Shown here in pieces: positions 4,538-32,731 of a DNA stretch of 48,493 nucleotides. The notes under the pieces were generated by a model. That model saw only the letters and a program-made list of their open reading frames with translations, did not search any database and was not told where the DNA came from. Position 1 is the stretch's first letter. Each line of letters starts with the position of its first letter. This DNA is from an uncultured Chthoniobacterales bacterium (GTDB lineage Bacteria > Verrucomicrobiota > Verrucomicrobiia > Chthoniobacterales > CALDSX01), in assembly GCA_964652295.1 (NCBI GenBank), contig CAZZCL010000005.1, forward strand, positions 1 through 48,493, given 5' to 3'. The position numbers and the translations under genes are program-made.

Positions 4538-4544
4538 AAGGGAA

Positions 4545-16077: not shown

Positions 16078-18185
16078 GTCAGTTTGCTTTTCAGGATACC
16101 AGCCGGGAGGAGGAAGATCGGGTCCGGGATCTGATTGGACGGCTTTCGCTGCTCGAGAAATGCTCCCAGCTTCGTTATGACGCGCCAGCCATTGATCGCC
16201 TGGGCATCCCGGCTTACAATTGGTGGAACGAGGCGCTGCACGGCGTGGCGAGGAACGGACGTGCCACGGTTTTCCCGCAGGCCATCGGCATGGCTGCCAC
16301 ATGGAATGTGGATCTGGTCAGGGAGCTGGCCTCGGCGATTTCGGATGAAGCCCGGGCCAAGCACCATGAGGCCGTCCGTCAGGGCAGCCGGCAGCAATAC
16401 CAAGGGCTGACTTTTTGGACACCCAATATCAACATTTTCCGCGACCCAAGATGGGGACGTGGTCAGGAAACATGGGGTGAGGATCCGAGACTGACTGCCG
16501 AGCTGGGAGCCGCCTTTGTGCGGGGCTTGCAGGGTGAAGATCCGCGCTATTTGAAAGCCGCGGCCTGTGCCAAACATTTCGCGGTGCACAGCGGGCCGGA
16601 GGCGCTGCGCCATGAGTTCAATGTGGATCCGACGACCCGCGACCTTTGGGAGACGTATCTTCCGGCATTTCAGCGACTGTGCGAGGAGGGCGTCGAGTCG
16701 TTCATGGGTGCCTACAACGCCGTGTATGGCGAGCCCTGCTGCGGTAGCAAGTTCCTACTCAGCGAGGTGCTGCGCGGACGCTGGGGATTTCGAGGTCATG
16801 TGGTTTCCGATTGTTGGGCGATCCGGGATTTCCATCTCGGGCACAAGGTGACGAAATCGCCGGAGGAATCGGCAGCCCTCGCGCTTAAGAATGGCTGTGA
16901 TCTGAACTGCGGTGACGAATACTGCCATGCTCTGGAGGGGGCGGCCCTGCTTGGTTTGGTCAGCGAGGAGGACCTCGACCGGGCCCTCGTCCGGCTCTTC
17001 CGCACGCGGTTCCGGCTCGGGCTTTTTGATCCGGAGGAGAACGTGCCTCACGCCGCCATTCCGCTCGCGGTGGTGGGTTGCGATGCGCACCGCCGATTGG
17101 CCTTCGATGCAGCAGTTCAGTCCATCGTTCTGCTGCAGAATCGCAACGAGTGTCTGCCGCTCGGGGAGGACTGCCGCAGCATCCTCCTCACCGGTCCTTT
17201 GGCGACCAGCGTGGAGGCGATGTTGGGAAATTACTCCGCGCTCAATGGTGCCATCAGCACGCCATTGGAGGGCCTCGCGGGGCGCATTGCTGAAGGGGTG
17301 CGGCTCGATTACCGCAAGGGCTGTCTGCTCGACCGTCCGCGACCGAACCCGTCGAACTGGGCGGCGTTTGAAGCCGTAAAATGCGATGCGGTCATCTGCT
17401 GCCTCGGCCTCACACCCGACCTCGAAGGCGAGGAAGGGGATGCCATCGAAAGCTTTCACAAAGGCGACCGCGAATCCATTGAGCTTCCAGAGAGCCAGCG
17501 CACTTTCTTTCTCGAATTGGCCGGGGCGATCCGCGAGGCGGGAGGCACGACGCGACTGGTGGTCGTGCTCTTTGGCGGGGCGGCTTTTGCCATTCCGGAG
17601 TTGGTCGAACACGCCGATGCCATTCTGCATGCATGGTATCCCGGCGAATCAGGAGGGGAGGCTGTGGCGGCAGTGCTGCTGGGACAGGCGGGGCCAGGCG
17701 GACGCCTCCCGGTTTCTTTTCCCCGCAGCACGGATTGTCTCCCCCCCTACGAGGACTATTCGATGCAAGGGCGCACCTATCGCTTCATGGCACCGGACGA
17801 TGTCCTGTTTCCGTTTGGTTACGGGCTCGGCTACACCACATTTTCATGGTCAGAGGCCACGAGCGAAAAGCTTGGGAGTTCATGGCAAGTAACGTGGGAC
17901 ATCCAGAACACCGGCTCCCGCGACGGAGTCGAGGTTGTGCAGTGCTACCATTTTACGCCCGACTCAAGCATCCCGCGTCTGATTGCTTTCCAAAGAATCG
18001 ACTTGGCGGCTGAGGAGGTCCAAACCGTCCAATTTCCTATCCCGGAGGCCCAACTCACCACAGTGCAGGATGACGGCTCCAACAACCTACTATCCGGCGA
18101 GCATCGCATCGTCTTTACCACCCATGCGCCGTGGATCCAAACACCCGACAATCAAAACGTTGTCTCCATTGTGATTTCCCCGTGA
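16074..18185 (+). CDS. GH3 beta-xylosidase/beta-glucosidase (no signal peptide)
   Basis: WWNEALHGVAR, WTPNINIFRDPRWGRGQETWGEDP, CAKHFAVHSGPE, HVVSDCWAI (nucleophile Asp), FPFGYGLGYT, C-terminal Fn3-like domain. Confidence 0.93.
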   Translation: MSQFAFQDTSREEEDRVRDLIGRLSLLEKCSQLRYDAPAIDRLGIPAYNWWNEALHGVARNGRATVFPQAIGMAATWNVDLVRELASAISDEARAKHHEAVRQGSRQQYQGLTFWTPNINIFRDPRWGRGQETWGEDPRLTAELGAAFVRGLQGEDPRYLKAAACAKHFAVHSGPEALRHEFNVDPTTRDLWETYLPAFQRLCEEGVESFMGAYNAVYGEPCCGSKFLLSEVLRGRWGFRGHVVSDCWAIRDFHLGHKVTKSPEESAALALKNGCDLNCGDEYCHALEGAALLGLVSEEDLDRALVRLFRTRFRLGLFDPEENVPHAAIPLAVVGCDAHRRLAFDAAVQSIVLLQNRNECLPLGEDCRSILLTGPLATSVEAMLGNYSALNGAISTPLEGLAGRIAEGVRLDYRKGCLLDRPRPNPSNWAAFEAVKCDAVICCLGLTPDLEGEEGDAIESFHKGDRESIELPESQRTFFLELAGAIREAGGTTRLVVVLFGGAAFAIPELVEHADAILHAWYPGESGGEAVAAVLLGQAGPGGRLPVSFPRSTDCLPPYEDYSMQGRTYRFMAPDDVLFPFGYGLGYTTFSWSEATSEKLGSSWQVTWDIQNTGSRDGVEVVQCYHFTPDSSIPRLIAFQRIDLAAEEVQTVQFPIPEAQLTTVQDDGSNNLLSGEHRIVFTTHAPWIQTPDNQNVVSIVISP

Positions 18186-18299
18186 TCTGCGCCGAACAAG
18201 GGGCTGCTGAAGGACATTCTCGGGGTCAGACGGGAACTCTCGCTCCTCCAGAATCCACACTCAAGTAATAGAAGTAAGAAAGAACGCAACACTGATGAC

Positions 18300-18354
18300 C
18301 TGATAAGAAATTGCTTTTTAGGCGGCTCCCGGTAGCTGATAGGAATTTGCTTTT
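18300..18354. repeat. 19-bp imperfect direct repeat, possibly IS91-like terminus remnants
   Basis: CTGATAAGAAATTGCTTTT (18300-18318) and CTGATAGGAATTTGCTTTT (18336-18354), 17/19 identical. A GC hairpin CGGCGGC-GTA-GCCGCCG follows. Confidence 0.4.
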
Positions 18355-18397
18355 CGGCGGCGTAGCCGCCGGGGTGGCATTGGGGGTGAGGGTTCAT

Positions 18398-18859
18398 TCA
18401 GGCCATATTCGGGTGACCCGGGTCGCCGCAGCCGCTTTGGATGTTGAGGCTGATCTCGATGCCGAGGCGGTCGGCCTCACGGATCGCGTGGGCGAAGTTC
18501 TACTTCCATCCGTCACTCATGAAGGCCGGGCCGGGCGGATCGGCCAGTTTGGCTCCGTTGTCGCAAATGAGGGCTCCACCGATGCCGTTTGCCTTCATCG
18601 CCTCAAGGTCCTGCGGGATGGATTGCCTGGTGGCCTGTCCCGCATGCCAGAACCACCAGACCCGGAGGCGTGCTTCCTGAGGTGGATTCGCGAATCCCTC
18701 CGCCAGGACGGAATAGTCGATCCATGGCCGGGTTTGAAAATACGACGAATCCCGCTCCGGCTGGCCGGCATGCGGCTCTGCCATCCCTTGCGCAAGAAAA
18801 GCGATTGATGCGAATACGATGACACGTTTCGTGATTGCTTGCTTAATTACCATTTCCAT
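18398..18859 (-). pseudogene. Truncated GH106-like alpha-L-rhamnosidase N-terminus
   Basis: Signal peptide, FANPPQEARLRVWWFW, DLEAMKANGIGGA, AFMSDGWK; in-frame TAG at 18500-18502; then NFAHAIREADRLGIEISLNIQSG and a stop at 18398. Confidence 0.75.
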
Positions 18860-20675
18860 TCGATTTGTTTTTTGGCGATACCTTGATCGGTGAACCCGTT
18901 TGTATCGAAGTCGAGAAGGGACCCGCCTTCAAATCGCCACGGTCACGAGGCATGCCGAAGAAGTCCTTATCGATGGAAAGCCTGGAAGCGTCCGGATTCA
19001 GGAAAGGAGCTTTCGAAATTCGGGTTAGACCGAGGCCTTCGGTTTCGACCAGCCTTCGATCTGCGGTTTTCGATTCTTCGGGGGCGGACTCGAATACCAG
19101 ATAGTAACCATCGTTCTTTTTCTTCAGTTCCACCGAGCCATCCGTGAAAACATTGCCTTCGATCGACATCGTCCCGGAAAAGCGCCCGTAAACGTCCAGG
19201 TTGAGCCCGTCCAGAAAGAGGTTGTTGTAGAAGCGGTTGTCGCCGCAGGGCGTCTTGTGCAGGCCGGCGATCTCGGTCGAATGCGGCTTGTGGTAAGGTG
19301 TTTCGCGAACCTGAGGCTTAACCTCGATCGTCCCGAAGGCCAGATTGTGGGCGTAGGTGCCGCCGCTCGACCAGTCGCGAAGGAAGTTTTCCGAAAGGAA
19401 GATATTGTTATCGATCACAAAGGGGCCGTGGTTCACCTCCACGAAAAGGTCCGGCTCGCGGTGGTCGTGAAGGAGATTGCCCGTGACACGTGCTCCCTGC
19501 GTCATCCAGTCCAGCCAAATACCTCGATACCCGGAATGAATATGGTTGTCCTGGATCAGCACATCAATGGGAGCGTGGATCTTGATTCCGGCCATCTCAG
19601 CGCCGTCATACAGTGCCCGGACGTGGATATCGTGGATGTGATTATCGCGGATGGTGCTGAAAACCGCACCCATGCTTCCCACGATGCCTGCCTGTTCGCA
19701 GTGGGAGATGTGGTTGTTCCTGACCATATGCCCGCCGATCTTCTCTTTCGACCACCCGTTCTTTAACGCCCGTTCAATGGTCCGGTTGTAGGCATCGGCC
19801 GATTGGGAGCGGTTGTCCCACTCGTCCCCGTATTTGCCCAGCGTGACGCCCACGCAGGCGGAGTAACGGATCGTGTTGTGTTCAATGATCCAGCCTTTGC
19901 TCCAGTGGGTGCCGATGAGGCCGACCTGCTCGGCGGTCGGGGGAGCCCATGGTGTCGCGGCATGTTCCAGGGTGAAGCCGCGAACCGTGATGAAGTTGCG
20001 GCCGGGAGAGTCCGGATAGAAAACAGCTCTACGGTAGGTGACTTCGACCAACGCCTGATTCGGGTCGGTATCCCTGAATTGGGCCCGAATGGTGGTGTGC
20101 CCGTCATCAACGGTGGCGAACCAGAGAAGATCGTCGGCTTCCGGGTCCGCGGGCTGCATGACGGCATCCAGATCCCTGGCCTGGACCAGCCAGTGGCCGT
20201 TCAGAAGAACGGAACCCGGGCTGTGCACACGACCCTTCGGCTTGAACCAGTCTCCTGAGATCTTGTCGCCGTAAGGATTGTAGTCCCCGAATGAGGAATT
20301 TTCCAGCACGACCTTCCAGGTGTCATTGACCTCCTTGACCCAACCGTCGACGACTTCGGAGCCCTTGATGGTGACATCCGCCCCGGGAGCGGCCCGAAAA
20401 ACAATGCGCTGATCTTCGGAGGCCCCGCCGCGCGGCGGGTTGACGTGCTCGCGATACACTCCTTCATGCACCGTTACCGTATCGCCCGGCAGGGCCATCT
20501 CCGCCGCCTTTTGAATTGTCCTGAACGGCTTTGCCAAGCTCCCCGGATTCGCATCTGCACCCTTGAGGGAAACATGGTATTCAGCACCTTCAAGAGCGAG
20601 TTGTGAAAGCAGCAGGTGGCAGGCTAAGAAGATTGCTCGTCTTGTATACATAGTCGATAGATGGATTTTATCCAA
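18843..20675 (-). CDS. GH120 beta-xylosidase (beta-helix), secreted
   Basis: EYHVSLKGAD..PGSLAKPFRTIQKAA, HEGVYRE, ATPWAPPTAEQVGLIGTHWSKGWIIE, GIWLDWMTQG, FVEVNHGP as in GH120 XylC-type enzymes; N-terminal signal peptide. Confidence 0.85.
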   Translation of the reverse strand: MDKIHLSTMYTRRAIFLACHLLLSQLALEGAEYHVSLKGADANPGSLAKPFRTIQKAAEMALPGDTVTVHEGVYREHVNPPRGGASEDQRIVFRAAPGADVTIKGSEVVDGWVKEVNDTWKVVLENSSFGDYNPYGDKISGDWFKPKGRVHSPGSVLLNGHWLVQARDLDAVMQPADPEADDLLWFATVDDGHTTIRAQFRDTDPNQALVEVTYRRAVFYPDSPGRNFITVRGFTLEHAATPWAPPTAEQVGLIGTHWSKGWIIEHNTIRYSACVGVTLGKYGDEWDNRSQSADAYNRTIERALKNGWSKEKIGGHMVRNNHISHCEQAGIVGSMGAVFSTIRDNHIHDIHVRALYDGAEMAGIKIHAPIDVLIQDNHIHSGYRGIWLDWMTQGARVTGNLLHDHREPDLFVEVNHGPFVIDNNIFLSENFLRDWSSGGTYAHNLAFGTIEVKPQVRETPYHKPHSTEIAGLHKTPCGDNRFYNNLFLDGLNLDVYGRFSGTMSIEGNVFTDGSVELKKKNDGYYLVFESAPEESKTADRRLVETEGLGLTRISKAPFLNPDASRLSIDKDFFGMPRDRGDLKAGPFSTSIQTGSPIKVSPKNKSNGNGN

Positions 20676-20807: not shown

Positions 20808-20834
20808 TGCGCACCCCTAGATATAATTTGCGCA
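20808..20834. promoter_or_regulatory. Bipartite operator copy 2 (TGCGCA-N15-TGCGCA)
   Basis: About 130-160 bp upstream of the GH120 start; 21-bp period. Confidence 0.65.
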
Positions 20835-21289: not shown

Positions 21290-21955
21290 TCATGGTTTTG
21301 AGATTGGGCGGCTGGTTGTTGTCTTTTCTTCAAAAAATTTCTCCACCGCAGCCAGAAGCTCAGGCGGAAAGGTAATCGCCTCAGGCGTGCTTGAAACCTG
21401 ATAGTCAAAAACCAGCCCTCCCAAAGTTCTTCGAAGCGGAAGCTTCGTCTCAATTGCAACAAATGCGGTTTCCTGAACTTCGCGATTGGACTCTCTGGAG
21501 AAGACGTGGCACTTGATACCGTTGACGTCCATGACCCCTGAAGAGTTGGTCGATCGAACCCAGAGAAGTTCGGGAAAATCGGAGGTTCCGAAGTCAATGT
21601 CCGGCCGCTCCTCGTTGAAATGCGGCATAACAAAATACGTGGGGCTTCCCGAGCGCTTGAGCACCACGACGCCGCGCACGCGCCAAAAGGTCTCCTCATC
21701 GCCATTCGAGTAGGTAACGACGTGAATGGAGCGCTCCCCGGTTCTTTTGCCCGTGCTCTTGATGAGCTGGCGGCGTGTTGGGGCGGGTGGCTTTGCTCCT
21801 TCCGCCGGCTGGCTGGTTGCTGCCCATGTCGCCGGATCGCCAGCTGTCAGATGAAGGGCATCTTCACCCCGCACTGTCTTTGGCTTCCCATTTTCTTCTG
21901 CGCTGAGTTGCGAAACCAAGCACCCAAAAAGTAGAATTAAAAAAAACGCTTTCAT
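21290..21955 (-). CDS. Secreted hypothetical protein, last gene of the pilin-like cassette
   Basis: Signal peptide MKAFFLILLFGCLVSQLSA; ATGA overlap with the cassette A gene; DFPELLWV motif. Confidence 0.75.
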   Translation of the reverse strand: MKAFFLILLFGCLVSQLSAEENGKPKTVRGEDALHLTAGDPATWAATSQPAEGAKPPAPTRRQLIKSTGKRTGERSIHVVTYSNGDEETFWRVRGVVVLKRSGSPTYFVMPHFNEERPDIDFGTSDFPELLWVRSTNSSGVMDVNGIKCHVFSRESNREVQETAFVAIETKLPLRRTLGGLVFDYQVSSTPEAITFPPELLAAVEKFFEEKTTTSRPISKP

Positions 21956-24900
21956 TCGACTACAAGTTCGGAAGTTCTCTCGAGAACTTCTCCGGTGAAA
22001 CGATCGATGGCCACATGCACCCAGTAGCGTTTTTCACCCTCGACGAGAAATTGTCCATTCACGTTTCGTCCCGGCTGGGCAATGACATCAATCATGAGAT
22101 TCCATACCCTTGTTGTTGATACATCCGCCAAGGCCCGCACGACGGCCTCCCGACGTCGCTTGACGATGGCATCGTCGGTGCTGCTCGGGGAGAGGGGAAA
22201 TGCGGTCGGCGAACCGACGAAGCGGTTCACGAGCTCAGCGCGGTTTTGCAAGGGGGTGGTTTGTGTCGTGGTGACCAATGCCTGTGCGAGGCTGTTACTC
22301 TGTGCGTCCAGAAGAGGCACGGGAGCGGTGCCTGTGCCCGAGAGAGGGGTTTCGTCCTTCAAGGTGCCTGCGATCATGGCCTCAAGCACCTCAGCGTTGC
22401 GGGTGTTCGGATTGATCACTCCAGCACGCAGGCCGGTGACGGTGGGTTCCTTGAGGCAGAAGATATCCAAAAGGGCGCTGTCGCCGCTGTTTGCTGTAAA
22501 GAAATCGATGCTTTTCCATGGGGTGTCACGAAAGACATACCCCAACTCTCCAACGGAACGGAACGGGCGGTTCAGGATAATGGGACGGCTGAAGTTGCGC
22601 CCGCCACTCACATTGGCGCTCAGCGCCAATGGTTGGCCCGCGTAGTTTCCCGAGGTCTCATAAACTCCATCAGCGCCCCGGACCACCCCATCGGGATCGT
22701 GATAGTAGGTATTGAGTGCACCTACATTGGCTGCGTTTGCTGAGTTGATAGAAACGGTTCCCAGAAAGGCGGTTGATGCATTGATTCCGCCCGCCTGAGG
22801 CGTGCCCGTCTTCCACCAACCGCTCACCAGCGAATTGTCTGCGGCATTAAAGAAAATTTGGCGATGTCTCCCTGCACCCAAGTCGGGTCGAAGATTGCTC
22901 CAAAGTGTCGAGTCGCCACCATCATCGCGACTGGCTGGAAAGCGGCCACTTCTGGGGTCCCAGAGGGATTGTTGGGGCAGGGGTGAGACCGAGACTGCGG
23001 GGAAAGGCTGGTTCACTCTGCGCACGGGGAACTGGCTCCCGAACAGGCCGGAATAAGTGAAATACTCTCTCCACTGCTCGCCGCGTCGATACGCCAAAGT
23101 AATGTCATAGCGACCAATGGTCTTGACCTGGTTGACGTTGGCAACCGTGGTTGGTTCCGGGGGAGTGCTGGGATACGTGGCCGGAATCGTTTGATTCGCT
23201 ATCGTTTCTACGGGGCTGGGCCAGGTCTTTCGGCAACTCACCGCTGATCCTGATGAAATAAAATCAAACGCGCCAACCGGGATAGCCTGCTGCATCCGTG
23301 GGGTTGCTGGAGGAGCGGGCGTGATAGTGCCGCCAGACGGGAGCAATTCCGGCTCTCGAAAGTCCGAGGCATTTGCCGAAAAATCATACGACACTGGCTG
23401 GTATGTTATCTGTGGGTTCTGGGCTTGTTGTGGGAAGCCTGGTGGATTGGTGGGACCAAAGGGTGGACTGGATGCCTTCCAGTTATAGAGCACGCCTGCC
23501 GCGTTCGATGGCGAAACAGTCACTCGAAACTGGGTGGGCGAATCTGGGGGCAACGGAGACGGCTGACCTGTATCGTGCGGATTCCAAAGCTCAGGAACGA
23601 CATAGTTTATCCAACTCCCCAAACTCGGTGCTGCGGGCTCGTCTTGAATTTGCGCTGCCATCATAATACGGTTCAAATAAGGCAAGTCTTCAATACCAAA
23701 AAATCGGAATCCATTGAGACGAATTTCCGTGGGGAAACTTTCAGAATCATATTGATCGATCATGTTGGCCCCGATCTGCAGGACTTGGTATTTGGGCTGC
23801 GTGGAGCGCAACTCGGGGGGACTCGGGTTTCCCGTCCACCCAAACTCCCGTTCCTCCTGTCGGAATGGGCCGGTCGTTCGTTGAGGCCGATAATAAGCAA
23901 ACCCCCTTCCGAGCGATCCCACATGGATCGCCGCTTGCATTAATTCAAAAAAATCCGGTTCCCGAGCTTCGCTGGCGGACAGCGCAGCCACTTCTTGAAG
24001 TCTAAGGATGCGCTGGGGATCCCGTCCCCCAAACGGAGTGCCGGACGAAGTGACGCCATAGCTCCAGGCGTTTGCCAAGTTATCCCACGCAAGGCCGAAG
24101 GCTGCCCGGATGTTTTCCCCGGTCCCCCTGTCATTGTATCGCGGGTCGGAGGATGGAAGATCAGCACTGGGGCCGTCGCCTGTAATCCAAGACAGCCTTT
24201 CAAGTGGAAACCTGTTCGTTACCAGCGGCTCGCGGACCTGTGCCTGGGAGCCGCTGAGGCGTTCAAACGGATGCTGCACGCGCACCATCGGCAGTGCCGG
24301 GTTGAACTGATCATCCAGTCCCACCGCCATGTTCCCGCCGGCAGAAAGCACGGCGTCTCGGGGATTGGAAGCGTCTCCGAGAATCCTGGGTCTCGCTGGG
24401 TCGGGAAGCCATGACGGGGCGTCAAGATCACGACTGGTTGTTCCAAGATACCGGAGGTAGTTCTGGCGCTCTGCCACCGACCCGCCGGACAGCTGCTTGA
24501 GAACGAAGTCGATGAGCGATTGTCGCGAGGGAAAGGCGCGGTCCGCGGATGTGCCGCTGCCGCCGACGGTGAGGTGCCCATTGGGATGTTCCAGAGAAAG
24601 CTCCAGATAGCGATCCGCACCTGCATCCAAGGTGGAGCGGTTCCGCCAACCCACCAGCGTCTGGCTGTCGGCTGCCGAGATCCCGATGCGAGTGAGATCG
24701 GCGGCGGCAAGAATTCCTTTCCGCCCAACGGGTTCCGTCTGCGTTTCGGCGGGCATGCCGCTGGCATCGGCGGGATACCCTGCAACGTTCATATCTAACA
24801 ATCCTCCGGCATCATAGATAGCGTAAGCGAAGCGTCCGATCACATCCGCATTGACCTGCTGGGGATTTCCTCCATTGCGGTCCACGTAGATCCACGTTGG

Positions 24901-25494
24901 AATCTGGAAGGAATCGTCACCCGTAACCGCTGGCGTTGGATCCGTCGCGGAGGGGTTTGCCTTGGGCAGCAGGAGTGTGCGGTTCCATCGGGCCGGGCTG
25001 ACAAATCGGCCATTCCTCGATGGTGTTGTGGTCGCATCTGTCGAGGCGCGCTGGCTTGGCGGATGGGCAGCCGCATTTGGAAACACGGGCTGCCCGTTAA
25101 ATTCCGTTGCCGAATCAAAAAAGGGCTGTGCAGAGCTCCATTTGACAAGATTGGCTGGTCGCAAGCTTGCAGTTGGATACGGCAACGCGCTGCGGGCCGT
25201 GGCAGGAACATACGTCGCAAAGAGTGTTCCATCACTGATCTCGAGCACAACCCCAGAGCTGCCCGCGGCGATCTCTTGTTTCAGGTCACCGAGGACGGTA
25301 TCGACGGCTCCCCGAGCCAGTCGCTCGGCACGAATGGTATTCGCGCTGTGCGCCGATACTTGGCGGTTGCTGACTGCTCTGGAGAAAAACGCCAACACCA
25401 GCCCTGTGACCAATACGAGAAGAGCCAAAACGACAACCAGAGCGAATCCGCTTCTGCGAGGTAAGGGGAGGAGGGGAGGGAAATCAGTTTTCAT
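21952..25494 (-). CDS. Verru_Chthon cassette protein A-like (large PilX/GspK-type prepilin-like protein)
   Basis: Prepilin-like RRSG/FALVVVLALLVLV lacking Glu5; 1180 aa; conserved-looking IGRFAYAIYD, ILNRPFRSVGELGYVFRD and EGEKRYWVHVAIDRFTG. Confidence 0.8.
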   Translation of the reverse strand: MKTDFPPLLPLPRRSGFALVVVLALLVLVTGLVLAFFSRAVSNRQVSAHSANTIRAERLARGAVDTVLGDLKQEIAAGSSGVVLEISDGTLFATYVPATARSALPYPTASLRPANLVKWSSAQPFFDSATEFNGQPVFPNAAAHPPSQRASTDATTTPSRNGRFVSPARWNRTLLLPKANPSATDPTPAVTGDDSFQIPTWIYVDRNGGNPQQVNADVIGRFAYAIYDAGGLLDMNVAGYPADASGMPAETQTEPVGRKGILAAADLTRIGISAADSQTLVGWRNRSTLDAGADRYLELSLEHPNGHLTVGGSGTSADRAFPSRQSLIDFVLKQLSGGSVAERQNYLRYLGTTSRDLDAPSWLPDPARPRILGDASNPRDAVLSAGGNMAVGLDDQFNPALPMVRVQHPFERLSGSQAQVREPLVTNRFPLERLSWITGDGPSADLPSSDPRYNDRGTGENIRAAFGLAWDNLANAWSYGVTSSGTPFGGRDPQRILRLQEVAALSASEAREPDFFELMQAAIHVGSLGRGFAYYRPQRTTGPFRQEEREFGWTGNPSPPELRSTQPKYQVLQIGANMIDQYDSESFPTEIRLNGFRFFGIEDLPYLNRIMMAAQIQDEPAAPSLGSWINYVVPELWNPHDTGQPSPLPPDSPTQFRVTVSPSNAAGVLYNWKASSPPFGPTNPPGFPQQAQNPQITYQPVSYDFSANASDFREPELLPSGGTITPAPPATPRMQQAIPVGAFDFISSGSAVSCRKTWPSPVETIANQTIPATYPSTPPEPTTVANVNQVKTIGRYDITLAYRRGEQWREYFTYSGLFGSQFPVRRVNQPFPAVSVSPLPQQSLWDPRSGRFPASRDDGGDSTLWSNLRPDLGAGRHRQIFFNAADNSLVSGWWKTGTPQAGGINASTAFLGTVSINSANAANVGALNTYYHDPDGVVRGADGVYETSGNYAGQPLALSANVSGGRNFSRPIILNRPFRSVGELGYVFRDTPWKSIDFFTANSGDSALLDIFCLKEPTVTGLRAGVINPNTRNAEVLEAMIAGTLKDETPLSGTGTAPVPLLDAQSNSLAQALVTTTQTTPLQNRAELVNRFVGSPTAFPLSPSSTDDAIVKRRREAVVRALADVSTTRVWNLMIDVIAQPGRNVNGQFLVEGEKRYWVHVAIDRFTGEVLERTSELVVE

Positions 25495-26434
25495 GGAGAA
25501 GGAAAACGCGCTGGTAAATTCGAATCTGGCCTGCCTGGCTCGGTGATATTCCTGCTTCGCTGGAAAATCCCGGAGACTCCAAAGCTTTTTTCCAAATCGA
25601 GGCCATCAATACCGGGGGGTCTGCCTCCAAGTCCTGCGTGGTCACGTCTGGCAGGGCGGATGCGACAAGCCCCATATTCTCGATGGTGATCCGGCTCGTT
25701 GCATCCATGCTGGCGATGGTCACGACAATCGCCTTCACTTCGTTGAGATTCGGAAAGCCGTCTCCATCGGCGTCATCCCAAGGCCGCCAGTTTGCATCGG
25801 GCAAAAACAGCCTCCCGTCGCGATCCATCAGACAGAATTCCATACGGAAAACATCCCCGGAGATTGTCTGGTAATCGTCGCTGGTGCCGTTGTAGTTGGG
25901 AGGCGCCCCCAGTTCAGCAGGCCAATTTCCTGCGAGAGTCGTCTCAGGAATTGCCCCGCTCGCATTCAACCGGACAAACACAGGCTGGTTCTGGGGATCT
26001 TCCCACAGAAGCGCCTTCCCCAAACGTTCGAGTTCAAACCGCGAATTGATCCGGTATCCAATCAATGAGAGCGGGCTGACTTGCGAGGATTGGGCAGCCG
26101 ACACGTAACCCGGTCCCTCGCTCTGGAAGAATATTTTGTCATTTCCCGGCTGCTTGGAAAAAATGGCATCCAAGTCGGCGCCGGGACGCTTCACTGCTCT
26201 GGAAAAATCCCGTGCCATCACGGCGAAGACATTCCTTCCTGCGGAGTCGGATTCAATGCGCCGTTGGCTGGAAGAGGTCGTCTGACCGGTGCTCGACACC
26301 ATCTGCAACATGAGCACGAGGAGAAGACCCACCACAACGGTTGCAACCAGCACTTCCACCAGACTGAATGCGGACGAGTTGCGCTCTTCGCATGGAAGAA
26401 TGTGCCTGAGTCTCTTCTGTTTGGCCATCCACAT
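25484..26434 (-). CDS. Verru_Chthon cassette protein C-like (PilW/GspJ-type prepilin)
   Basis: SA/FSLVEVLVAT N-methylation motif; overlaps the A gene. Confidence 0.8.
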   Translation of the reverse strand: MWMAKQKRLRHILPCEERNSSAFSLVEVLVATVVVGLLLVLMLQMVSSTGQTTSSSQRRIESDSAGRNVFAVMARDFSRAVKRPGADLDAIFSKQPGNDKIFFQSEGPGYVSAAQSSQVSPLSLIGYRINSRFELERLGKALLWEDPQNQPVFVRLNASGAIPETTLAGNWPAELGAPPNYNGTSDDYQTISGDVFRMEFCLMDRDGRLFLPDANWRPWDDADGDGFPNLNEVKAIVVTIASMDATSRITIENMGLVASALPDVTTQDLEADPPVLMASIWKKALESPGFSSEAGISPSQAGQIRIYQRVFLLHEN

Positions 26435-26435
26435 A

Positions 26436-26957
26436 TCAGTTTCTGTCCAGACTGGTCAACATTTCAAATCTGCCCGAAGCGTCCGCCGCATTCATTTGGG
26501 CAGGCCACGTGACGAGGATGACCAAGGGAACGGCATTGCGCCCACTGGCGGGGCTGAAACGGACCGTGATCCGATACTTGCCGGTTTGATCGGTGTAAGC
26601 CACGCCTGAGGCATCATTTCGGCTTCCGCCGACGTCCAAAAAGAGTTCGACCTGCGAGGCATTCCGACCATCGAACTGAATCCCATAAATCGGGGAGCCG
26701 TCGGTCGAAGATTTGCTGCTACCATCCGGATTGAATTGTCGGGAGGTGGATCGAATATCCGATTCAAGCAGCGCAGCGATGTTTGCGGCTTCTGTTTCCT
26801 GTGTGGCATCCCGGTTTGTGCCAAGGGCGACGGGAAGCAACCCAAGAACGGCCAGGAGGGCAAAAGCCACAATTCCAATGGCTATCACGACTTCCACCAG
26901 CGAAAATCCTCGGGCTGCCAAGGCCATCCATGATGGCATACGAGTGGAAATTTTCAT
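26436..26957 (-). CDS. Verru_Chthon cassette protein B-like (PilV/GspI-type prepilin)
   Basis: RG/FSLVEVVIAIGIVAFALLAVLGLLPVAL, the characteristic cassette-B N-terminus; ILVTWPA near the C-terminus. Confidence 0.85.
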   Translation of the reverse strand: MKISTRMPSWMALAARGFSLVEVVIAIGIVAFALLAVLGLLPVALGTNRDATQETEAANIAALLESDIRSTSRQFNPDGSSKSSTDGSPIYGIQFDGRNASQVELFLDVGGSRNDASGVAYTDQTGKYRITVRFSPASGRNAVPLVILVTWPAQMNAADASGRFEMLTSLDRN

Positions 26958-27826
26958 GGCCGATAGATCGTCGTTGTGCCGATAAGTCCGTCCACATGCA
27001 CGGCAGCCGCATTGCTGTCATCTGGAACCAGTGTGTTGCCCTTGGTTGCGCGGAGACCGAACTCCAGCTGTCGGCCCAGGATCGGAGCACCCCCCGTCAC
27101 AATTCTTGCGGAGCCATTGGGATCAAACTCGATGACGTGGCGAAATGTGTATTGAGCCCCCGCACCCGAAGAACCAAGCGGGTGGCTGAACCCAATCGAG
27201 GACTCGGAGGCGGATGCACCGATTCGGAAAGAGGCGGGCACTTCCGGCCTCACCATTCCACTTGCCGCAGCACCGGGGTCGAGTGTGGACGCAAGGTGGA
27301 TGTTCTCCAGGCGCATGAGCTTCCCAATCTGCACAAGACCCGTTCCATCGGCCGTCTTGGACTGCCAATCGGAGGCCACGTCCTGCGCGGGGTCATAGAT
27401 TCTCGTGCCATCGCTGGATGCCACGGCCATCATTGCAACCCGCCCAATTCCCTCAGGCTGTGGGCGCGTCGCGGGATTGGCGGTTTGATCTGACTCGTCG
27501 ATGCCAACCCAAACGTAAGTATTGTTGGCCAATGCGTAAGTTCTTGCATGGGACAAAACCTCGGACACCGTGTAGGCAGCAGCCGAAAGCCCCTTGGCAG
27601 ACATGATTCCGGTGATCGCAGGAGTTATCAGGGCCGTCAATAATCCAATGATCGCGAGAACTACCAGCAACTCCATGAGGGAAAATCCTGTGCGTCGCGG
27701 AGGGGTCAAAACGGGCGAAGTGCCTCCAAGGATACACTCTGTATTAAGACATGGTCTTGATCGACCGAGCGCAGCGCTTGGACCGGGATTCGCAAAATGC
27801 AAAGTGTAATGGGAGTGGGGAGACAC
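26954..27826 (-). CDS. Verru_Chthon cassette protein D-like (FimT/GspH-type prepilin); start uncertain
   Basis: TG/FSLMELLVVLAIIGLL, ARTYALANNTYVWVG, IEFDPNG, VDGLIG..TIYRP. Confidence 0.8.
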   Translation of the reverse strand: MSPHSHYTLHFANPGPSAALGRSRPCLNTECILGGTSPVLTPPRRTGFSLMELLVVLAIIGLLTALITPAITGIMSAKGLSAAAYTVSEVLSHARTYALANNTYVWVGIDESDQTANPATRPQPEGIGRVAMMAVASSDGTRIYDPAQDVASDWQSKTADGTGLVQIGKLMRLENIHLASTLDPGAAASGMVRPEVPASFRIGASASESSIGFSHPLGSSGAGAQYTFRHVIEFDPNGSARIVTGGAPILGRQLEFGLRATKGNTLVPDDSNAAAVHVDGLIGTTTIYRP

Positions 27827-27872
27827 TTGTTATTAGATACCACCATAATGAGTTACTCTGCAAATCTCATTA

Positions 27873-27899
27873 TGCGCGAAGTTGAATGAGAAATACGCA
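27873..27899. promoter_or_regulatory. Bipartite operator copy 3 (TGCGCG-N15-TACGCA), nearest the pilin cassette
   Basis: About 50 bp upstream of the D-like ORF start; 21-bp period. Confidence 0.55.
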
Positions 27900-27988
27900 A
27901 CCCAAAATCTCTCAATCGATCTTGCCGTGCTTGGAATGGACTCCCTGTTTCTTGTCCCAACCAATGCATCTGAGCATCTTGGCCAAAT

Positions 27989-28015
27989 TGCGTAAACACG
28001 ATTCTATACTGCGCA
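27989..28015. promoter_or_regulatory. Bipartite operator copy 4 (TGCGTA-N15-TGCGCA), upstream of rhaA
   Basis: About 120 bp upstream of the rhaA ATG; 21-bp period. Confidence 0.6.
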
Positions 28016-28131: not shown

Positions 28132-29388
28132 ATGAACACGAATGCACTCTATGGACTCGCACATGAACAATACGGCGAGCTGGGCGTCGACACCGAGGTC
28201 GCACTAAACACAATCGCCGCGACTTCGTTATCCCTGCACTGCTGGCAGGGCGATGATGTCGGAGGCTTCGAGACCGAGCACGGCCTGCTCTCCGGCGGTG
28301 GCATTCAGGCCACCGGCAATTATCCCGGCAAAGCGCGGACTTTGGACGAACTGCGCGCCGACCTCGACAAGGCACTTTCGCTCATCCCAGGGAAGCACCG
28401 CCTTAACCTCCATGCGTGTTATGCTGATCTCTCGGCCGGTCGGGTGGATCGCGATGCCTACACAGCAGCCCATTTTCAAAGCTGGATCGATTGGAGCAAA
28501 GCCCGCGGGCTGGGCATGGACTTCAACCCGAGCTATTTTTCCCATCCGCTCGCCGAGAGCGGTCTCACCCTCTCGCACGCCGATCCTGGAATCCGCGATT
28601 TCTGGATTAATCACGGCATCGCCTGCCGGAGGATCGGCGAGGAAATTGCCCGCCAGCTCAGCTCGCCTTGCGTGAACAATATCTGGATCCCCGACGGCTC
28701 CAAAGACCTTCCTTTTGACCGCAAGTCGCCCCGTGAGCGTTTGGCAGAGTCCTTGGACGCCATCCTCGCCGCGCCGGTGGATCGTGCCCTGAATTTGGAT
28801 GCGGTGGAGAGCAAGCTTTTTGGCATCGGTTCGGAAAGCTATGTCGTCGGCTCCCACGAATTCTATCTCGCCTACGCCGTGCGGCATCAGCTTCTCTACT
28901 GCCTGGATGCGGGCCATTTCCACCCGACCGAAAGTCTCGCGGACAAAATCTCCTCGTTGCTTCAGTTTGTGCCACGTCTGCTTCTACATGTCAGTCGGGG
29001 TGTGCGCTGGGACAGCGACCACGTCGTGCTTCTGGATGATCCAACCAAAGCGATCATGGAAGAGGTGGTTCGTGGCGGATTTCTTGGCCGCACGCACATC
29101 GGCCTCGATTTTTTCGATGCGAGCATCAACCGGATCGCCGCGTGGACGATTGGCACCCGGAGCACCCAGAAGGCGCTCTTGGCCGCATTACTGGAGCCGG
29201 CAACCCTTCTCCGGGAAGCGGAAGAGTCTGGCGACTTCACCCGCCGACTGGCTCTCCTCGAAGAAACAAAAACGCTGCCACTCGGTGCCGTTTGGCAGGA
29301 ACATTGCCGACGGCACGATGTGCCGGGCGACCATTCCTGGATCGAGGAAGTGCGAACGTATGAAAGAGATGTCCTTTCCCGGAGATAA
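28132..29388 (+). CDS. rhaA: L-rhamnose isomerase
   Basis: [82 protein letters not shown]. Confidence 0.97.
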
Positions 29389-29435
29389 ACAAAACGTCGG
29401 CCATCAATCACCACCACCCGTTTTCCTTTTTCCTC

Positions 29436-30635
29436 ATGAATCCCATCCTCGGCGTCCTTTTCCACTGGCTCGGCGGCTTTGCTTCCGGGAGTTTTTATGT
29501 CCCTTACAAAATGGTCAAAAAATGGTCCTGGGAGACCTACTGGCTGGTGGGTGGCGTCTTCTCCTGGATCATCTGCCCGTTGTTTTTCGCAGTCCTAATG
29601 ACCAACGACGTCTTCGGGGTCCTGGGCAAGCAGTCGGCATCGACCCTTGGCTGGAGCTACTTTTTCGGGGTTCTGTGGGGAATCGGCGGGCTGACTTTCG
29701 GGCTGACCATGCGCTACCTCGGGCTATCGCTGGGAATGGGGGTCGCCTTGGGGTTCTGCGCGGCATTCGGGACGCTGCTGCCTCCCATTTTCAAGCTGTT
29801 CATGCCGACCGTGCCGGTGCCGGAGGATATCGTCCAAATCGCCTACACGCTCCCCGGCCTGATCACCCTGGCGGGCGTCGGCGTCTGTCTGTTGGGCATT
29901 TTCATTGCGGCCCTCGCCGGGCTGACCAAGGAACGGGAGATGTCAGCGGCAGACAAACAAAAAACAATTGCCGAATTCAATTTCCCCAAGGGCATCATGA
30001 TTGCGATGTTTTCGGGCATCATGAGCGCGTGCTTCGCCTTCGCGCTGACAGCAGCGGCACCCATTGGCACGGTTTCCGCCGAGGCCGGCACTTCCGAGCT
30101 TTGGACCGGGCTGCCGAAGTTGGTGGTCGTCCTCTTGGGGGGCTTCACCACCAACTTCATTTGGTGTGCGGCCCTGAATATTCGCAATCGCACGGGCTAC
30201 CAATACCTGAGCAAAACCGTCCGGCCGGAACATGCGGGACTCACCGCATCCGGCGGGGAGCATGGTGATCCTGCCTCGGACCTTGTGAGCGAGGTGGCGG
30301 CAGATCATCCGGCAAAGATCGATCCCAAAGACTTCCGTGTCCCGAGGTTGGGTAACTACTTCTTCTCCGCACTGGCCGGGGCAACCTGGTATTTCCAATT
30401 CTTTTTTTACACGATGGGCGAGACGCAGATGGGCCAGTATGGGTTTGCCTCATGGACCCTGCACATGGCCAGCATCATCATCTTTAGCACGATGTGGGGA
30501 TGGATCCTGCACGAGTGGAAAGGGGCGAGTAAGAAAGCCCACCTGCTGATCGCTGTCGGCATCATCACGCTGATCCTCTCCACCATCATCATCGGCTACG
30601 GCACCTGGCTCAAGGGTGGCGGCCCGGCCCATTAA
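29436..30635 (+). CDS. rhaT: L-rhamnose:proton symporter
   Basis: GSFYVPYKMVKKWSWETYW, WGIGGLTFGLTMRYLGLSLG, WYFQFFFY.MG, SWTLHMASII; directly after rhaA. Confidence 0.93.
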   Translation: MNPILGVLFHWLGGFASGSFYVPYKMVKKWSWETYWLVGGVFSWIICPLFFAVLMTNDVFGVLGKQSASTLGWSYFFGVLWGIGGLTFGLTMRYLGLSLGMGVALGFCAAFGTLLPPIFKLFMPTVPVPEDIVQIAYTLPGLITLAGVGVCLLGIFIAALAGLTKEREMSAADKQKTIAEFNFPKGIMIAMFSGIMSACFAFALTAAAPIGTVSAEAGTSELWTGLPKLVVVLLGGFTTNFIWCAALNIRNRTGYQYLSKTVRPEHAGLTASGGEHGDPASDLVSEVAADHPAKIDPKDFRVPRLGNYFFSALAGATWYFQFFFYTMGETQMGQYGFASWTLHMASIIIFSTMWGWILHEWKGASKKAHLLIAVGIITLILSTIIIGYGTWLKGGGPAH

Positions 30636-30656: not shown

Positions 30657-31757
30657 ATGAAAGCAACGCTCACGGCTTCTTCGAAACTGACAAGAATAAA
30701 ATTCACCACGAGCTTAACACTTCTCTGCATCGCGGTCTTGGGGGAGGGTATCGCCGCATCAGCAGCCGACCCCAGCGATGGTTCCCTCGGGGTCGGAGAT
30801 CCTGCTCCAGCGCTCCAGGCGGGGGAATGGATTCAAGGCGAACCGGTCACGGAGTTTGCCCCGGACAAGCCGTATCTCATCGAATTCTGGGCGACATGGT
30901 GCGGGCCGTGCGTTGAATCCATCCCCCACCTCAATGAAATCGCTGCTGCGTATGACGACAAAGGCTTGGTGGTCATCGGCCAGAATATTTCGGAACCGGA
31001 TGAAAGCAGGGTCAAACCTTTCGTCGAGAAAATGGGCGACAAAATGACCTACCGCGTGGCCTTGGACGACAAGTCGCAGATGGAGAAAGGCGCGATGGCT
31101 GCAACGTGGTTGAAAGCCTCGGGGGTAGGTGGAATTCCCGTCGCATTCCTTGTAGGAAAGGATGGAAAGATCGCTTGGATCGGCCATCCGATGGCGCTGG
31201 AATCGTCAGTCATCAATCAGGTTCTGGCCGGAACCTTTGACCTCAAAAAGGCAGTCTCTGATTCCCAGGAGACACGCGAGGCATTGAGGCTGGGCGATGA
31301 AATCGAACTTCTCTATCGTGCCGGAAGATGGGATGAGGCTGAAGCGGCTCTGAATCAGGCCGCCAAGCTCTTTTCCCCGGAACCGCCAGACATTGCCCGG
31401 CTCAGAGCAAGAATCGGATTTCAGCAGTTGGCGGTGCAGTTGGATCAGCAGATCAACGCAAAAGCCTGGGATAAGGCGGGCGCCACAGTGCAGAACATTT
31501 CCGAGCTTGCCCTCCAGGATAGCCTGCCCGATGAAGCGAAAGTTGATATCAAGACGATGGCTCTGAAAGTGCGCCTCATGAGTTCTTTGGGACGGGGGGA
31601 TTGGGAAGCGGCCACGATGCACGCGAAGCAGCTCCCGCAAGCCGATGCCATCGAGACGGTTCAGGAGGCAATTTCTCGCTCGGACGATGAGGCGACCTCA
31701 CAGACGCTGAGACACATTCTGGAACGCTTGCAGTCTGGTAGCCCTCGACAAAAATAA
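30657..31757 (+). CDS. TlpA/redoxin-family thiol-disulfide oxidoreductase with helical (TPR-like) C-terminus, exported
   Basis: N-terminal signal/TM segment; LGVGDPAP, IEFWATWCGPCVESIPHL, GIPVAFLVGKDGKIAWIGHP. Confidence 0.85.
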   Translation: MKATLTASSKLTRIKFTTSLTLLCIAVLGEGIAASAADPSDGSLGVGDPAPALQAGEWIQGEPVTEFAPDKPYLIEFWATWCGPCVESIPHLNEIAAAYDDKGLVVIGQNISEPDESRVKPFVEKMGDKMTYRVALDDKSQMEKGAMAATWLKASGVGGIPVAFLVGKDGKIAWIGHPMALESSVINQVLAGTFDLKKAVSDSQETREALRLGDEIELLYRAGRWDEAEAALNQAAKLFSPEPPDIARLRARIGFQQLAVQLDQQINAKAWDKAGATVQNISELALQDSLPDEAKVDIKTMALKVRLMSSLGRGDWEAATMHAKQLPQADAIETVQEAISRSDDEATSQTLRHILERLQSGSPRQK

Positions 31758-31877
31758 TCGAATCGAGTGCCCTGTTAGGAACAATGGAAAGGAATCTTGG
31801 TTGGAATGGCAACCATGGGTTGATCTGCGATAATGGTTGCGGCGGGCTTTTTGTGTGCCCGTCGCATCGCGTCAGGA

Positions 31878-32273
31878 TCAATACCGCTCTACCTGCAATT
31901 CGGGAACTTTTCCGAACTCATCAATGTTTCTGGTTACCAAAGCCACGCGGCATTGGAGGGCAGCAACCGCGATCCAAAGGTCATGCGGGCCGATCAATGC
32001 ATTGCGCTGTCTGAGCACGGCGAAGAGATTCGCATAGATTTCCAGCGATTCCTCGTTCGGCCATATCGTGGGATAGCGAGTCAAAAATACCCGGACTTCA
32101 TGGAGATCATGTCCAGCGACGGCGGCCCCCCTCAAAAACTCGGCTTTCACAATCCATGGAATCCCGAGCGACAACTCCGGATGGGCAAGCAGCCAGGCTG
32201 CCGCTGGAGATTTCTTCCCTTTCCTCCAACGGGAAATCAAAAAATTGGTATCGATGACGCGGTCAACGTTCAC
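31878..32273 (-). CDS. vapC: VapC-type PIN-domain toxin
   Basis: VIDTNFLI, KAEFLRG, IGPHDLWIAVAAL, LVTRNIDEFGKVPELQVERY; probable GTG start at 32273. Confidence 0.88.
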   Translation of the reverse strand: MNVDRVIDTNFLISRWRKGKKSPAAAWLLAHPELSLGIPWIVKAEFLRGAAVAGHDLHEVRVFLTRYPTIWPNEESLEIYANLFAVLRQRNALIGPHDLWIAVAALQCRVALVTRNIDEFGKVPELQVERY

Positions 32274-32289
32274 GATGCACAAGCCCGGC

Positions 32290-32532: not shown

Positions 32533-32621
32533 GTGCCAATGTTGCACGAGAACACGAATCATGTCAAACTGAGCTTCTTTGATAGTTCACGGAGACCGCC
32601 TCAACCGGCCGTGAGCCTTTG

Positions 32622-32648
32622 TGCGCAATACGAATCTTAAATCACGCA
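32622..32648. promoter_or_regulatory. Bipartite operator copy 5 (TGCGCA-N15-CACGCA)
   Basis: About 85 bp upstream of the GH106 operon; 21-bp period. Confidence 0.55.
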
Positions 32649-32731
32649 CTTTCTTGGTTGTTGATCGCACCGAATAAAGCGACACTTGATTTCCCCGTGA
32701 AAAGAAAATCTCCCCTAACTTCTCCTATTTC

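Follow-up and report, generated by a model that had tools for sequence, protein, structure and literature searches.

A minor pseudopilin-like gene cassette with a giant GspK-like protein in a rhamnose glycan locus of an uncultured Chthoniobacterales bacterium

Tip sets of minor pilins, alternative sets within a single genome and minor pilins that carry an additional module are all already known. Myxococcus xanthus, for example, reportedly has three alternative type IVa priming sets. GspK, the cap pseudopilin of type II secretion systems (T2SSs), lacks a glutamate at position +5 of the mature protein. In the available text of one 2026 study (PMC13533445), providing the last strand of the cap sheet in cis is the type II secretion solution, while in type IV pili this strand comes from PilY1. 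The accessible portions of a further report (PMC13174399) and of a review (PMC12418764) tie type IV-like pilus genes to glycan acquisition in Akkermansiaceae. Here, we describe a cassette of five genes (D, B, C, A and E) located in a rhamnose glycan locus of an uncultured Chthoniobacterales bacterium. The window, that is, the whole stretch of 48,493 nucleotides analysed, corresponds to bases 1-48493 of the 62.7-kb contig C5 of a 3.2-Mb genome (G000), which is 99% complete.

Gene anatomy and family assignment of the cassette

The cassette occupies 21290-27826 on the minus strand and is composed of five coupled open reading frames (ORFs), which overlap or abut: there are overlaps of 4 nt (D/B), 11 nt (C/A) and 4 nt (A/E), and a single nucleotide separates B from C. 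The five genes are translationally coupled. Together with the two genes that diverge from them, they are:

26954..27709, minus strand: D, GspH/FimU-like prepilin-type protein, 251 aa, from TTG 27709 (the ORF extends to GTG 27826)
26436..26957, minus strand: B, GspI/PilV-like prepilin-type protein, 173 aa
25484..26434, minus strand: C, GspJ/PilW-like prepilin-type protein, 316 aa
21952..25494, minus strand: A, giant GspK-like cap pseudopilin, 1180 aa
21290..21955, minus strand: E, secreted protein with a LolA/RseB/LprG-like fold, 221 aa, directly 3' of A
28132..30635, plus strand: rhaA (28132-29388; Pfam RhaA, 3.4e-192) and rhaT (29436-30635; Pfam RhaT, 3.9e-67), divergent from the cassette

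The D ORF begins at GTG 27826 and its sole later in-frame start is TTG 27709, which has a GGAGG 13 nt upstream. Judging from the sequence, the TTG is the most likely start, and D is taken as 26954-27709 since this yields the usual short leader, MTPPRRTG. The true start of rhaA is taken as ATG 28132 because the Pfam alignment begins at residue 20 of a longer ORF. With these two starts, the divergent spacer is therefore 422 bp.

The translations of D, B and C carry prepilin-type N-termini (RRTG/FSLMELL, AARG/FSLVEVV and NSSA/FSLVEVL, respectively). That of A (RRSG/FALVVVL) has a mature end without a glutamate at +5, and the translation of E opens with a signal peptide. An earlier reading of the window from its sequence (the original prediction) had described pilin-like genes with a fifth secreted gene, divergent from rhaA-rhaT and flanked by carbohydrate-active enzyme (CAZyme) genes. 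ORFs, translations and Pfam matches agree with this description. The same reading had called the genes a Verru_Chthon cassette, and here the outcome is divided. The top NCBIfam models for the four genes, in order, are Verru_Chthon D, B, C and A, and the arrangement, with D, B, C and A side by side in that order and A of very large size, is that of such a cassette, but all four scores lie below the model cut-offs: 39.1 bits for D with TIGR02596 (cut-off 70), 43.5 bits for B with TIGR02598 (cut-off 51.4), 29.7 bits for C with TIGR02599 (cut-off 256.5) and 27.8 bits for A with TIGR02600 (cut-off 332.3; 33.5 bits in the genome search). The matches of D, B and C are confined to the first 56-60 profile positions, and that of A to its residues 16-76 on positions 1-61 of a model with 1296 positions. 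The genome has a true Verru_Chthon A on contigs C125/C83, which scores 405.6 bits (526.2 bits with neighbouring pieces); an hhalign comparison of the A-family profile with this protein aligns 65 N-terminal columns only. Because of the scores below cut-off and the 65-column alignment, we use the Verru_Chthon label for the architecture and not for membership: the D-B-C-A order and the giant A of the original prediction stand, whereas family membership does not.

The next-best NCBIfam models, also all below cut-off, are those of secretion and pilus proteins: GspG/GspH for D (GspH, 29.9), PilV/GspI for B (PilV, 35.5), GspJ for C (20.3) and GspK for A, where the match to NF037980 (T2SS_GspK; 18.5 bits, cut-off 130) covers the N-terminal 63 residues only. 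The prepilin cleavage/methylation motif TIGR02532 is found above its cut-off of 16.3 in D (25.7) and B (18.7), and Pfam N_methyl (PF07963) in D (29) and C (21.6, against a cut-off of 21.2). A carries a prepilin motif without Glu+5 and matches neither of these models. Pfam detects nothing in the cassette beyond the N-methylation motif, and sequence searches with B and C against Protein Data Bank (PDB) chains returned nothing below an E-value of 0.1.

The H-I-J-K-like gene order, together with a predicted fold of A that matches GspK and its Pseudomonas aeruginosa counterpart XcpX (see below), bears out the suggestion of a minor-pilin tip set. The evidence is good that the cassette serves a type IV filament machine as its tip or initiation set. 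As to its role, we tentatively favour, at rather less than even confidence, an inducible and locus-specific filament tip that would engage the rhamnose glycan.

The A and E proteins

A is a member of a large family that has no name and comprises at least 568 proteins at an E-value of 1e-3 or below (8000 candidates scored). Among the matches listed, members range from 1040 to 1520 aa; the 120 listed are all without a Pfam domain, and one source calls a few of them PilX. The protein can be divided as follows:

Residues 17-77 of A: N-terminal helix
Residues 78-640 and 970-1180 of A: conserved segments
Residues 641-969 of A: variable insert, a beta-sandwich plus a segment modelled with low confidence

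In an alignment of 30 members, the fraction of the commonest residue is 0.51-0.67 at positions 17-600 and 970-1180 and falls to 0.28-0.36 at 641-969, where a variable middle had indeed been suspected. The stretch from W637 to D846 varies from 154 to 302 residues across this alignment. The middle is 91% identical in an ortholog that is itself 88% identical, and 22-31% identical in distant family members, the flanks of which retain 46-69% identity. With its divergence between family members and 91% identity in a close ortholog, the insert is more in keeping with a specificity module than with a neutral linker.

The AlphaFold model of A (predicted local distance difference test (pLDDT) 70.1; predicted template modelling score (pTM) 0.76) starts with a 60-residue N-terminal helix and is confident at about 60-640 and 970-1180; pLDDT falls below 50 at 819-969. 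Foldseek gave only a weak best match with this model (XcpX, E-value 0.055). Exhaustive structure alignment identified GspK (3ci0_K; Z 11.2, root-mean-square deviation 4.2, 250 of 280 residues) and XcpX (5vtm_X; Z 10.6, 227 of 259 residues), both alignments covering residues 45-1180 of the model. The next matches (Z no higher than 7.1) are Ig-like beta-sandwiches, mostly from glycoside hydrolase (GH) family GH2 enzymes, on residues 601-845. Since GspK and XcpX lie clearly above all other structure matches, A is, by its predicted fold, a GspK-type cap with a large insert; the model matches the GspK fold, which is defined by a pilin core with an inserted alpha domain. The structural match reaches the last residue, 1180, and the final strand of the cap sheet therefore seems to be supplied in cis.

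These properties fit about as well with another role. The set might be a locus-specific T2SS pseudopilus tip in which the insert of A recognises the exported enzymes of the locus, rather than a glycan, or pushes them through the secretin towards the surface of the cell or into the medium. The match to GspK and XcpX, a terminal strand in cis as in T2SSs and a gene order equivalent to gspH-I-J-K are all in its favour. We regard such a secretion role as somewhat doubtful but as having a real chance of being correct; the evidence from the locus and from the genome is given below.

Part of the insert deserves separate mention. Residues 846-970 (at about 22585-22957 in the window) are modelled with pLDDT below 50 yet include residues that are invariant in the 30 members, namely D846-P847-R848, N917 and a DPDG..R motif at 933-939. 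This part may fold on binding to a partner or to a metal ion.

E was not assigned to any Pfam or NCBIfam family at an E-value of 0.01 or below. A word-based search with the protein returned, apart from the window's own copy, seven close relatives only: five full-length (70-82% identity) and two shorter (58-66% query coverage, 79-89% identity). An ORF lies directly after A in 14 of 18 related loci (described below), and 13 of these 14 match E by phmmer in a database of 15 sequences (best 5.4e-10, weakest 0.023). All 13 have a signal-peptide-like hydrophobic N-terminus as judged by eye; the unmatched ORF (L056) does not. The motifs SDFPEL.W and T.LP are kept in the alignment. The model of E (pLDDT 81.4) has 43 Foldseek matches in the PDB at an E-value of 1e-3 or below and displays the unclosed beta-barrel and lid helix of the LolA superfamily, an assignment by fold and not by sequence family. 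VIA structure alignment gave a top Z of 10.5, with 9.0 for LolA and 8.8 for RseB. A hidden Markov model of E revealed no further copy in this genome, so that E goes with this A family only. The position of E mirrors that of pilY1 after fimU-pilVWX, but E is small and has a different fold. A complex prediction of A (residues 560-1180) with E (residues 20-221), run without controls, scored 0.00, a value that speaks neither for nor against a contact.

Because E has the fold of lipid carriers of the LolA/LprG type, it can be asked whether the set handles a lipid-linked or amphipathic molecule, such as a glycolipid or a lipoprotein, instead of free polysaccharide. The fold matches (LolA, LolB, RseB, LprG and LppX) and the retention of E beside A are consistent with this. 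However, a common fold shows no function, the locus includes no lipid-metabolism genes, and a simpler role for E would be that of a periplasmic chaperone for the hydrophobic N-terminal helix of the cap. We consider a hydrophobic cargo highly improbable.

Operator, locus context and filament machinery

The window contains six copies, all intergenic, of a 27-bp palindrome, TGCGYRA-N13-TYRCGCA. This was exposed by the contexts of TGCGCAA, which in a k-mer test had 9 of its 19 occurrences in intergenic DNA (10.9% of the window). The six sites are:

14567..14593: between the GH78 gene (minus strand) and MFS_2-GH3 (plus strand)
20808..20834: upstream of the GH120 gene (minus strand) and downstream of E
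27873..27899: site 1, proximal to the cassette, TGCGCGAAGTTGAATGAGAAATACGCA
27989..28015: site 2, proximal to rhaA, TGCGTAAACACGATTCTATACTGCGCA
32622..32648: upstream of GH106-GH10-sulfatase-GDSL
43189..43215: upstream of the GH42-like genes

In the window, the operator gives 12 strand-matches compared with 2.18 +/- 1.64 in shuffled sequences, and none of 100 shuffles reached 12. Genome-wide, 24 sites have the N13 spacing, 7 of them on contig C5, which represents 2% of the genome; ten other spacings give 157 sites, 2 of them on C5. A spacing one base shorter, taken as a negative control, gives no site on C5. An initial description as a direct-repeat, AraC-style operator with an orientation was dropped since both strands match. 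The shared operator with two copies in the cassette/rhaA intergenic region, as proposed originally, thus takes the form of this palindrome, with seven sites that all lie on contig C5. Sites 1 and 2 are separated by 116 bp, centre to centre, and their spacer is the sole one with two sites among six operator-bearing regions, the other five having one each. Site 1 lies 47 bp from the GTG at which the D ORF starts, in keeping with the earlier figure of about 50 bp, and 164 bp from the probable TTG start.

The seventh site (C5:55661 onward) is located outside the window and ends 13 nt before the ATG of an AraC-family gene:

C5:55701-56858: AraC-family gene with a periplasmic-binding-protein-like domain (Peripla_BP_3), divergent from a GH42 gene

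As the regulator of the whole locus, this gene is the obvious candidate, and it is probably autoregulated. On the positions of the operator sites, the cassette is likely to belong to the regulon of the locus.

A second, different, perfect palindrome abuts site 1:

27844..27874: CATAATGAG-N13-CTCATTATG

It has the same 13-nt spacer as the operator but another half-site and occurs once in the genome at up to 2 mismatches; the nine-base arm CATAATGAG is no commoner in the window than expected by chance. It could be the site of a second regulator or a pair of divergent -10-like boxes. Several other analyses gave negative results. No consistent -10/-35 pattern adjoins the seven operator sites, a generic repeat finder applied to the window did not reveal the operator, and simple palindrome scans of 18 related loci and of the C7 set (see below) found no recurring palindromes. 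Footprinting of the D/rhaA spacer found no relative above 38% identity in the genome collection, with the exception of one local segment at 51%.

The remaining genes of the locus are:

11677..20675: GH78, 11677-14439 (minus strand); MFS_2, 14641-16077 (plus strand); GH3, 16074-18185 (plus strand); GH120, 18843-20675 (minus strand)
30657..48493, plus strand: exported thioredoxin-like protein, GH106, GH10, sulfatase, GDSL esterase, GH31 and two GH42-like genes

By eye, eight locus products have a signal peptide (seven enzymes, including GH120, and the thioredoxin-like protein), and GH78, GH3 and GH31 have none. The thioredoxin/AhpC-TSA-like protein (366 aa; 30657-31757) is encoded directly after rhaT in the same direction and is odd in a sugar operon. 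The remaining 14 kb of contig C5 contain genes for a PEP-CTERM protein, a GH42, the AraC/Peripla_BP_3 regulator and an integrase. Neither a TonB receptor nor SusD was found among window ORFs of at least 200 aa or in the rest of the contig, so that the absence of SusC/SusD and TonB receptors noted originally for the window also extends to the contig sequence just outside it. The whole genome has two TonB-receptor matches, on other contigs, and no SusD.

Genes for the filament machinery are present elsewhere in the genome: four GspE/PilB-size and four PilT-size ATPase genes, three secretins, about four platform genes and one prepilin peptidase. Sets of H-I-J-K type are multi-copy, as had been stated for such cassettes. 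There are four: that of the window, one each on contigs C7 and C10, and the true Verru_Chthon set on a short contig. The giant A-like proteins of C7 and C10 have only the N-terminal helix in common with A.

The C7 set (C7:14581-22896; L002/L003) is an unrelated pseudopilin set in which a 1532-aa A-like gene comes first and is followed by three prepilin-type genes. Its neighbours are four sulfatases, GH116, a GH63-like gene, MFS_2, rhaM, a DHDPS-type aldolase, a lactonase and an AraC gene. On C10 (C10:25744-39734; L006/L007), GspG, two pilin-like genes, T2SSM_b and a secretin precede the set, which follows the secretin directly with three prepilin-type genes, an 864-aa A-like gene and a 227-aa ORF. 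This set looks machine-linked.

The secretion role introduced above draws further support from the C10 cluster, with its GspG-type major pseudopilin, T2SSM_b and secretin, and from the seven enzymes with a signal peptide. There is also a parallel in an Opitutales isolate for which, in the available text (PMC13274419), a PulG-like pseudopilin gene lies in an alginate locus, the pseudopilin is over-expressed on alginate and export of alginases by a T2SS is proposed. On the other hand, the exo-acting enzymes, although exported, may simply remain periplasmic, and the four PilT-size ATPase genes make retractile filaments possible. Secretion would also leave import through the outer membrane unexplained, given the near absence of TonB receptors. 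In addition, we know of no T2SS with several alternative tip sets encoded beside their substrates.

The left part of the window (1-11650) includes eight ORFs of 222-449 aa without a Pfam family at 1e-5 and is slightly poorer in G+C (0.54-0.57). About 1.1 kb of it is bracketed by a 20-nt inverted repeat (8236-8255 and 9367-9386; 95% complementary), and the integrase gene is located at the other end of the contig (C5:59682-60956). This region may be foreign or mobile DNA beside the glycan locus.

Family distribution, proposed role and comparison with known systems

Of 61 genomes sampled from the window's order, 20 (counting G000) have the A family in a profile search. Eighteen cassette loci had room on both sides and were taken as 20 kb centred on the cassette (14.1 kb for L043, at a contig end); four further A-family matches were too near a contig end and were excluded. 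Fixed rules were used to select 11 control stretches, each of 14 kb, from these genomes. ORFs of at least 110 aa were called greedily, the cassette genes were excluded and matches to GH, polysaccharide lyase, AXE1/SASA esterase and sulfatase families at an E-value of 1e-8 or below were counted within about 7 kb of the cassette. CAZyme or sulfatase genes are present in 13/18 cassette loci compared with 3/11 controls (one-sided Fisher p 0.023) and make up 26/176 cassette-flank ORFs compared with 5/129 control ORFs (one-sided Fisher p 0.0012). All five control hits are on cassette-bearing contigs; there are none in the six controls from contig C1. The p-values overstate the co-location, as related genomes do not count as independent samples. 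Rhamnose-related genes recur beside related cassettes: GH78 in L053 and L057, RhaT in L044 and, among the five loci without CAZymes, RhaA directly after E in L054. Of the other four such loci, L041 has an MFS_2 gene, L047 has an AraC/binding-protein regulator and an ROK gene, and L050 and L058 adjoin T2SSE ATPase genes.

Two further observations concern these loci. Proteins with PATR repeats (autotransporter-associated; 822-1288 aa, six ORFs) are encoded beside the cassette in 4 of 29 loci (L042, L044, L057 and L073) and in none of the 11 controls; the 29 include the second sample described below. On a metagenome contig with about 80-83% nucleotide identity (L207; 8859-14660), only E and the last 112 codons of A remain, joined to the end of a GH42-like gene and with a GH3 gene nearby. 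Either the set was rearranged, or D-B-C and most of A were lost, or the contig is misassembled.

In the mechanism that we propose, the five genes would equip a filament machine of the type II secretion/type IV pilus kind with an alternative tip (initiation) complex. D, B and C would be the GspH-, GspI- and GspJ-like pseudopilins of this complex, A a giant GspK-like cap that presents its 330-residue variable insert at the filament apex and E a periplasmic LolA-fold partner specific to this A family. The AraC-type/sugar-binding regulator would probably act through the 27-bp operator and switch the cassette on together with the rhamnose-glycan locus. Filaments primed by the set would then engage the glycan of the locus, by capture or by adhesion, and their retraction might carry it to the secretin and on into the periplasm. 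The gene anatomy, the predicted folds, the operator sites and the gene neighbourhood are shown directly; that the set assembles on one of the three secretin machines of the genome, is induced together with the locus and binds or takes up any glycan is what we infer. Engagement of the glycan is favoured because the insert is paralog-specific, the cassettes are dispersed into glycan loci in the window's order and PilT-size ATPases are present, and also because import routes of the TonB/SusD type are lacking and there is a precedent in Akkermansiaceae.

Several results weigh against a glycan-engaging tip. A GspK-type anatomy with the last strand in cis is a trait of secretion systems and not of retractile pili. 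Structure searches with the insert of A recognised no carbohydrate-binding module, only generic beta-sandwiches of the Ig-like, FN3 and C2 kinds (Z no higher than 7.1). As for regulation, the 164 bp from site 1 to the probable start of D is the longest of nine site-to-start distances and the operators, being palindromic, have no direction, so that site 1 may serve the cassette or rhaA alone. The co-location is also less robust than the figures above would indicate. With one locus per genome it becomes 7/11 compared with 3/11 (p 0.10). A replicate with 11 loci from other, mostly more distant genomes (the first twelve listed with full flanks and from distinct isolates, minus one excluded by a size cap) gave CAZyme genes in 3/11 loci and 7/134 ORFs, no better than the controls. 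With both samples combined, the difference is not significant by locus (16/29 compared with 3/11, p 0.11); by ORF it is 33/310 compared with 5/129 (p 0.013). The statistical association between such cassettes and CAZyme clusters that the original prediction had proposed to look for is thus seen in the window's order but not in the wider sample. In addition, the members in L050 (with two T2SSE genes), L058, L075, L088 and L108 adjoin T2SSE/T2SSF genes in a housekeeping-looking context, and the A proteins of rhamnose-linked loci do not cluster in a quick tree of 19 A proteins.

The neighbourhood of L058, L075, L088 and L108 is conserved: an Xer-like integrase is present in all four, and T2SSE/T2SSF/MshEN genes and Roadblock/LC7, ketoacyl-synthase or NuoA genes are each present in two or three of them. 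This points to an ancestral copy linked to machine genes. Our reading is that the family consists of core copies beside machine genes and of copies dispersed into glycan loci in the window's order.

The negative replicate also keeps alive the alternative that the cassette is an incidental neighbour of the locus and primes a pilus or pseudopilus of general use, whether in adhesion, motility, DNA uptake or housekeeping secretion, with both operators serving only rhaA-rhaT. Members beside T2SSE/T2SSF genes, the lack of a single rhamnose-linked clade and L207, which indicates that the set can be lost or rearranged, are all compatible with this. The strong linkage in the window's order with controls from the same genomes is less easily explained in this way, as are the location of two of the four sets of this genome in glycan loci, the two operator sites in a spacer when the other regions have one, and the recurrence of RhaA, RhaT and GH78. 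We judge an incidental association unlikely.

A bolder reading can also be considered. Interchangeable tip modules in the glycan loci of Verrucomicrobiota that lack SusC/D might re-arm a shared secretin/ATPase machine as a substrate-specific harpoon, retraction of which would feed the polymer through the secretin into the periplasm. Each module, controlled by the locus regulator, would combine three GspH/I/J-like proteins with a giant GspK-like cap, the insert of which would be locus-specific, and with a LolA-fold chaperone. This is speculative and, at present, a long shot. If true, it would provide the missing outer-membrane step of 'selfish' polysaccharide uptake in Verrucomicrobiota. For the passage of large glycans across the outer membrane in Verrucomicrobiota without transporters of the SusC/D type, this locus offers a concrete candidate that can be tested. 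Should the set prove to be induced with the locus and to engage its glycan or enzymes, filament tips would be swappable, substrate-specific modules, and this would alter the annotation of glycan loci in Verrucomicrobiota. If the role is in secretion, locus-encoded tip sets would represent a new layer of type II secretion specificity.

Among known systems, the T2SS tip GspH-I-J-K (for example, GspIJK of enterotoxigenic Escherichia coli, 3CI0, and XcpUVWX of Pseudomonas aeruginosa, 5VTM/6UTU) shares with the cassette the gene order, a cap without Glu+5 and, in the predicted model, a fold that aligns up to the C-terminus of A (Z 11.2 for GspK and 10.6 for XcpX). It differs in several ways. A is about four times larger, with extra conserved parts and the 330-residue variable insert; the window set lies away from machine genes, in a glycan locus with the operator of that locus, and includes a LolA-fold fifth gene. 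There are, moreover, four unlike sets in the genome, and the sequence models for GspH/I/J/K score far below cut-off.

The named Verru_Chthon cassette resembles the window set in its top-scoring models, D-B-C-A order, size of A, phylum and multiple copies per genome, but the window genes fall below all four cut-offs and only about 60 N-terminal residues align. To our knowledge, the named cassette has no fifth, LolA-like gene. The type IVa priming complex FimU-PilV-PilW-PilX-PilY1 of P. aeruginosa also combines four minor pilins with one secreted non-pilin at the tip, and several alternative sets can occur in one genome. In the window, however, the fifth protein is a 221-aa LolA-fold protein and not a large PilY1/PilC adhesin. 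The adhesin-sized part is instead built into the K-like subunit, and the last strand is apparently in cis, in contrast to the pilus arrangement as given in the available text (PMC13533445).

MUL2 of Akkermansiaceae (amuc_1099-1102) is, like our cassette, from Verrucomicrobiota, and its filament is proposed to attach to complex glycans and assist in their uptake without a Sus-like system (PMC13174399, available text). It consists of a PilM protein, an archaeal-type pilin-like protein and two uncharacterised genes near a secretin, and in the accessible part of that report has no H-I-J-K set with a giant cap and is not described within enzyme loci (PMC13174399). The PilA-PilC pilins of Streptococcus sanguinis are alike in that a tip minor pilin has a grafted module that reportedly binds glycans, but they belong to a Gram-positive type IV pilus and carry another module, as far as the available text describes them (PMC9934059); glycan binding by A is hypothetical. 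With SusC/SusD of Bacteroidota, the cassette may share by analogy its proposed role alone, that is, locus-encoded capture or import of glycans at the outer envelope. There is no homology, the contig has no TonB-dependent barrel or SusD lipoprotein and thus no adjacent SusC and SusD genes of a Bacteroidota-type polysaccharide utilisation locus, and the genome has no SusD.

A literature search (supplements not covered) found in print none of the four features that are new here, nor minor-pilin cassettes in Verrucomicrobial glycan loci. These features are a family of giant GspK-like caps in which the insert is paralog-specific, the LolA-fold protein conserved as its partner, the position of the cassette inside a glycan locus and the two sites of the locus's private operator that adjoin it.

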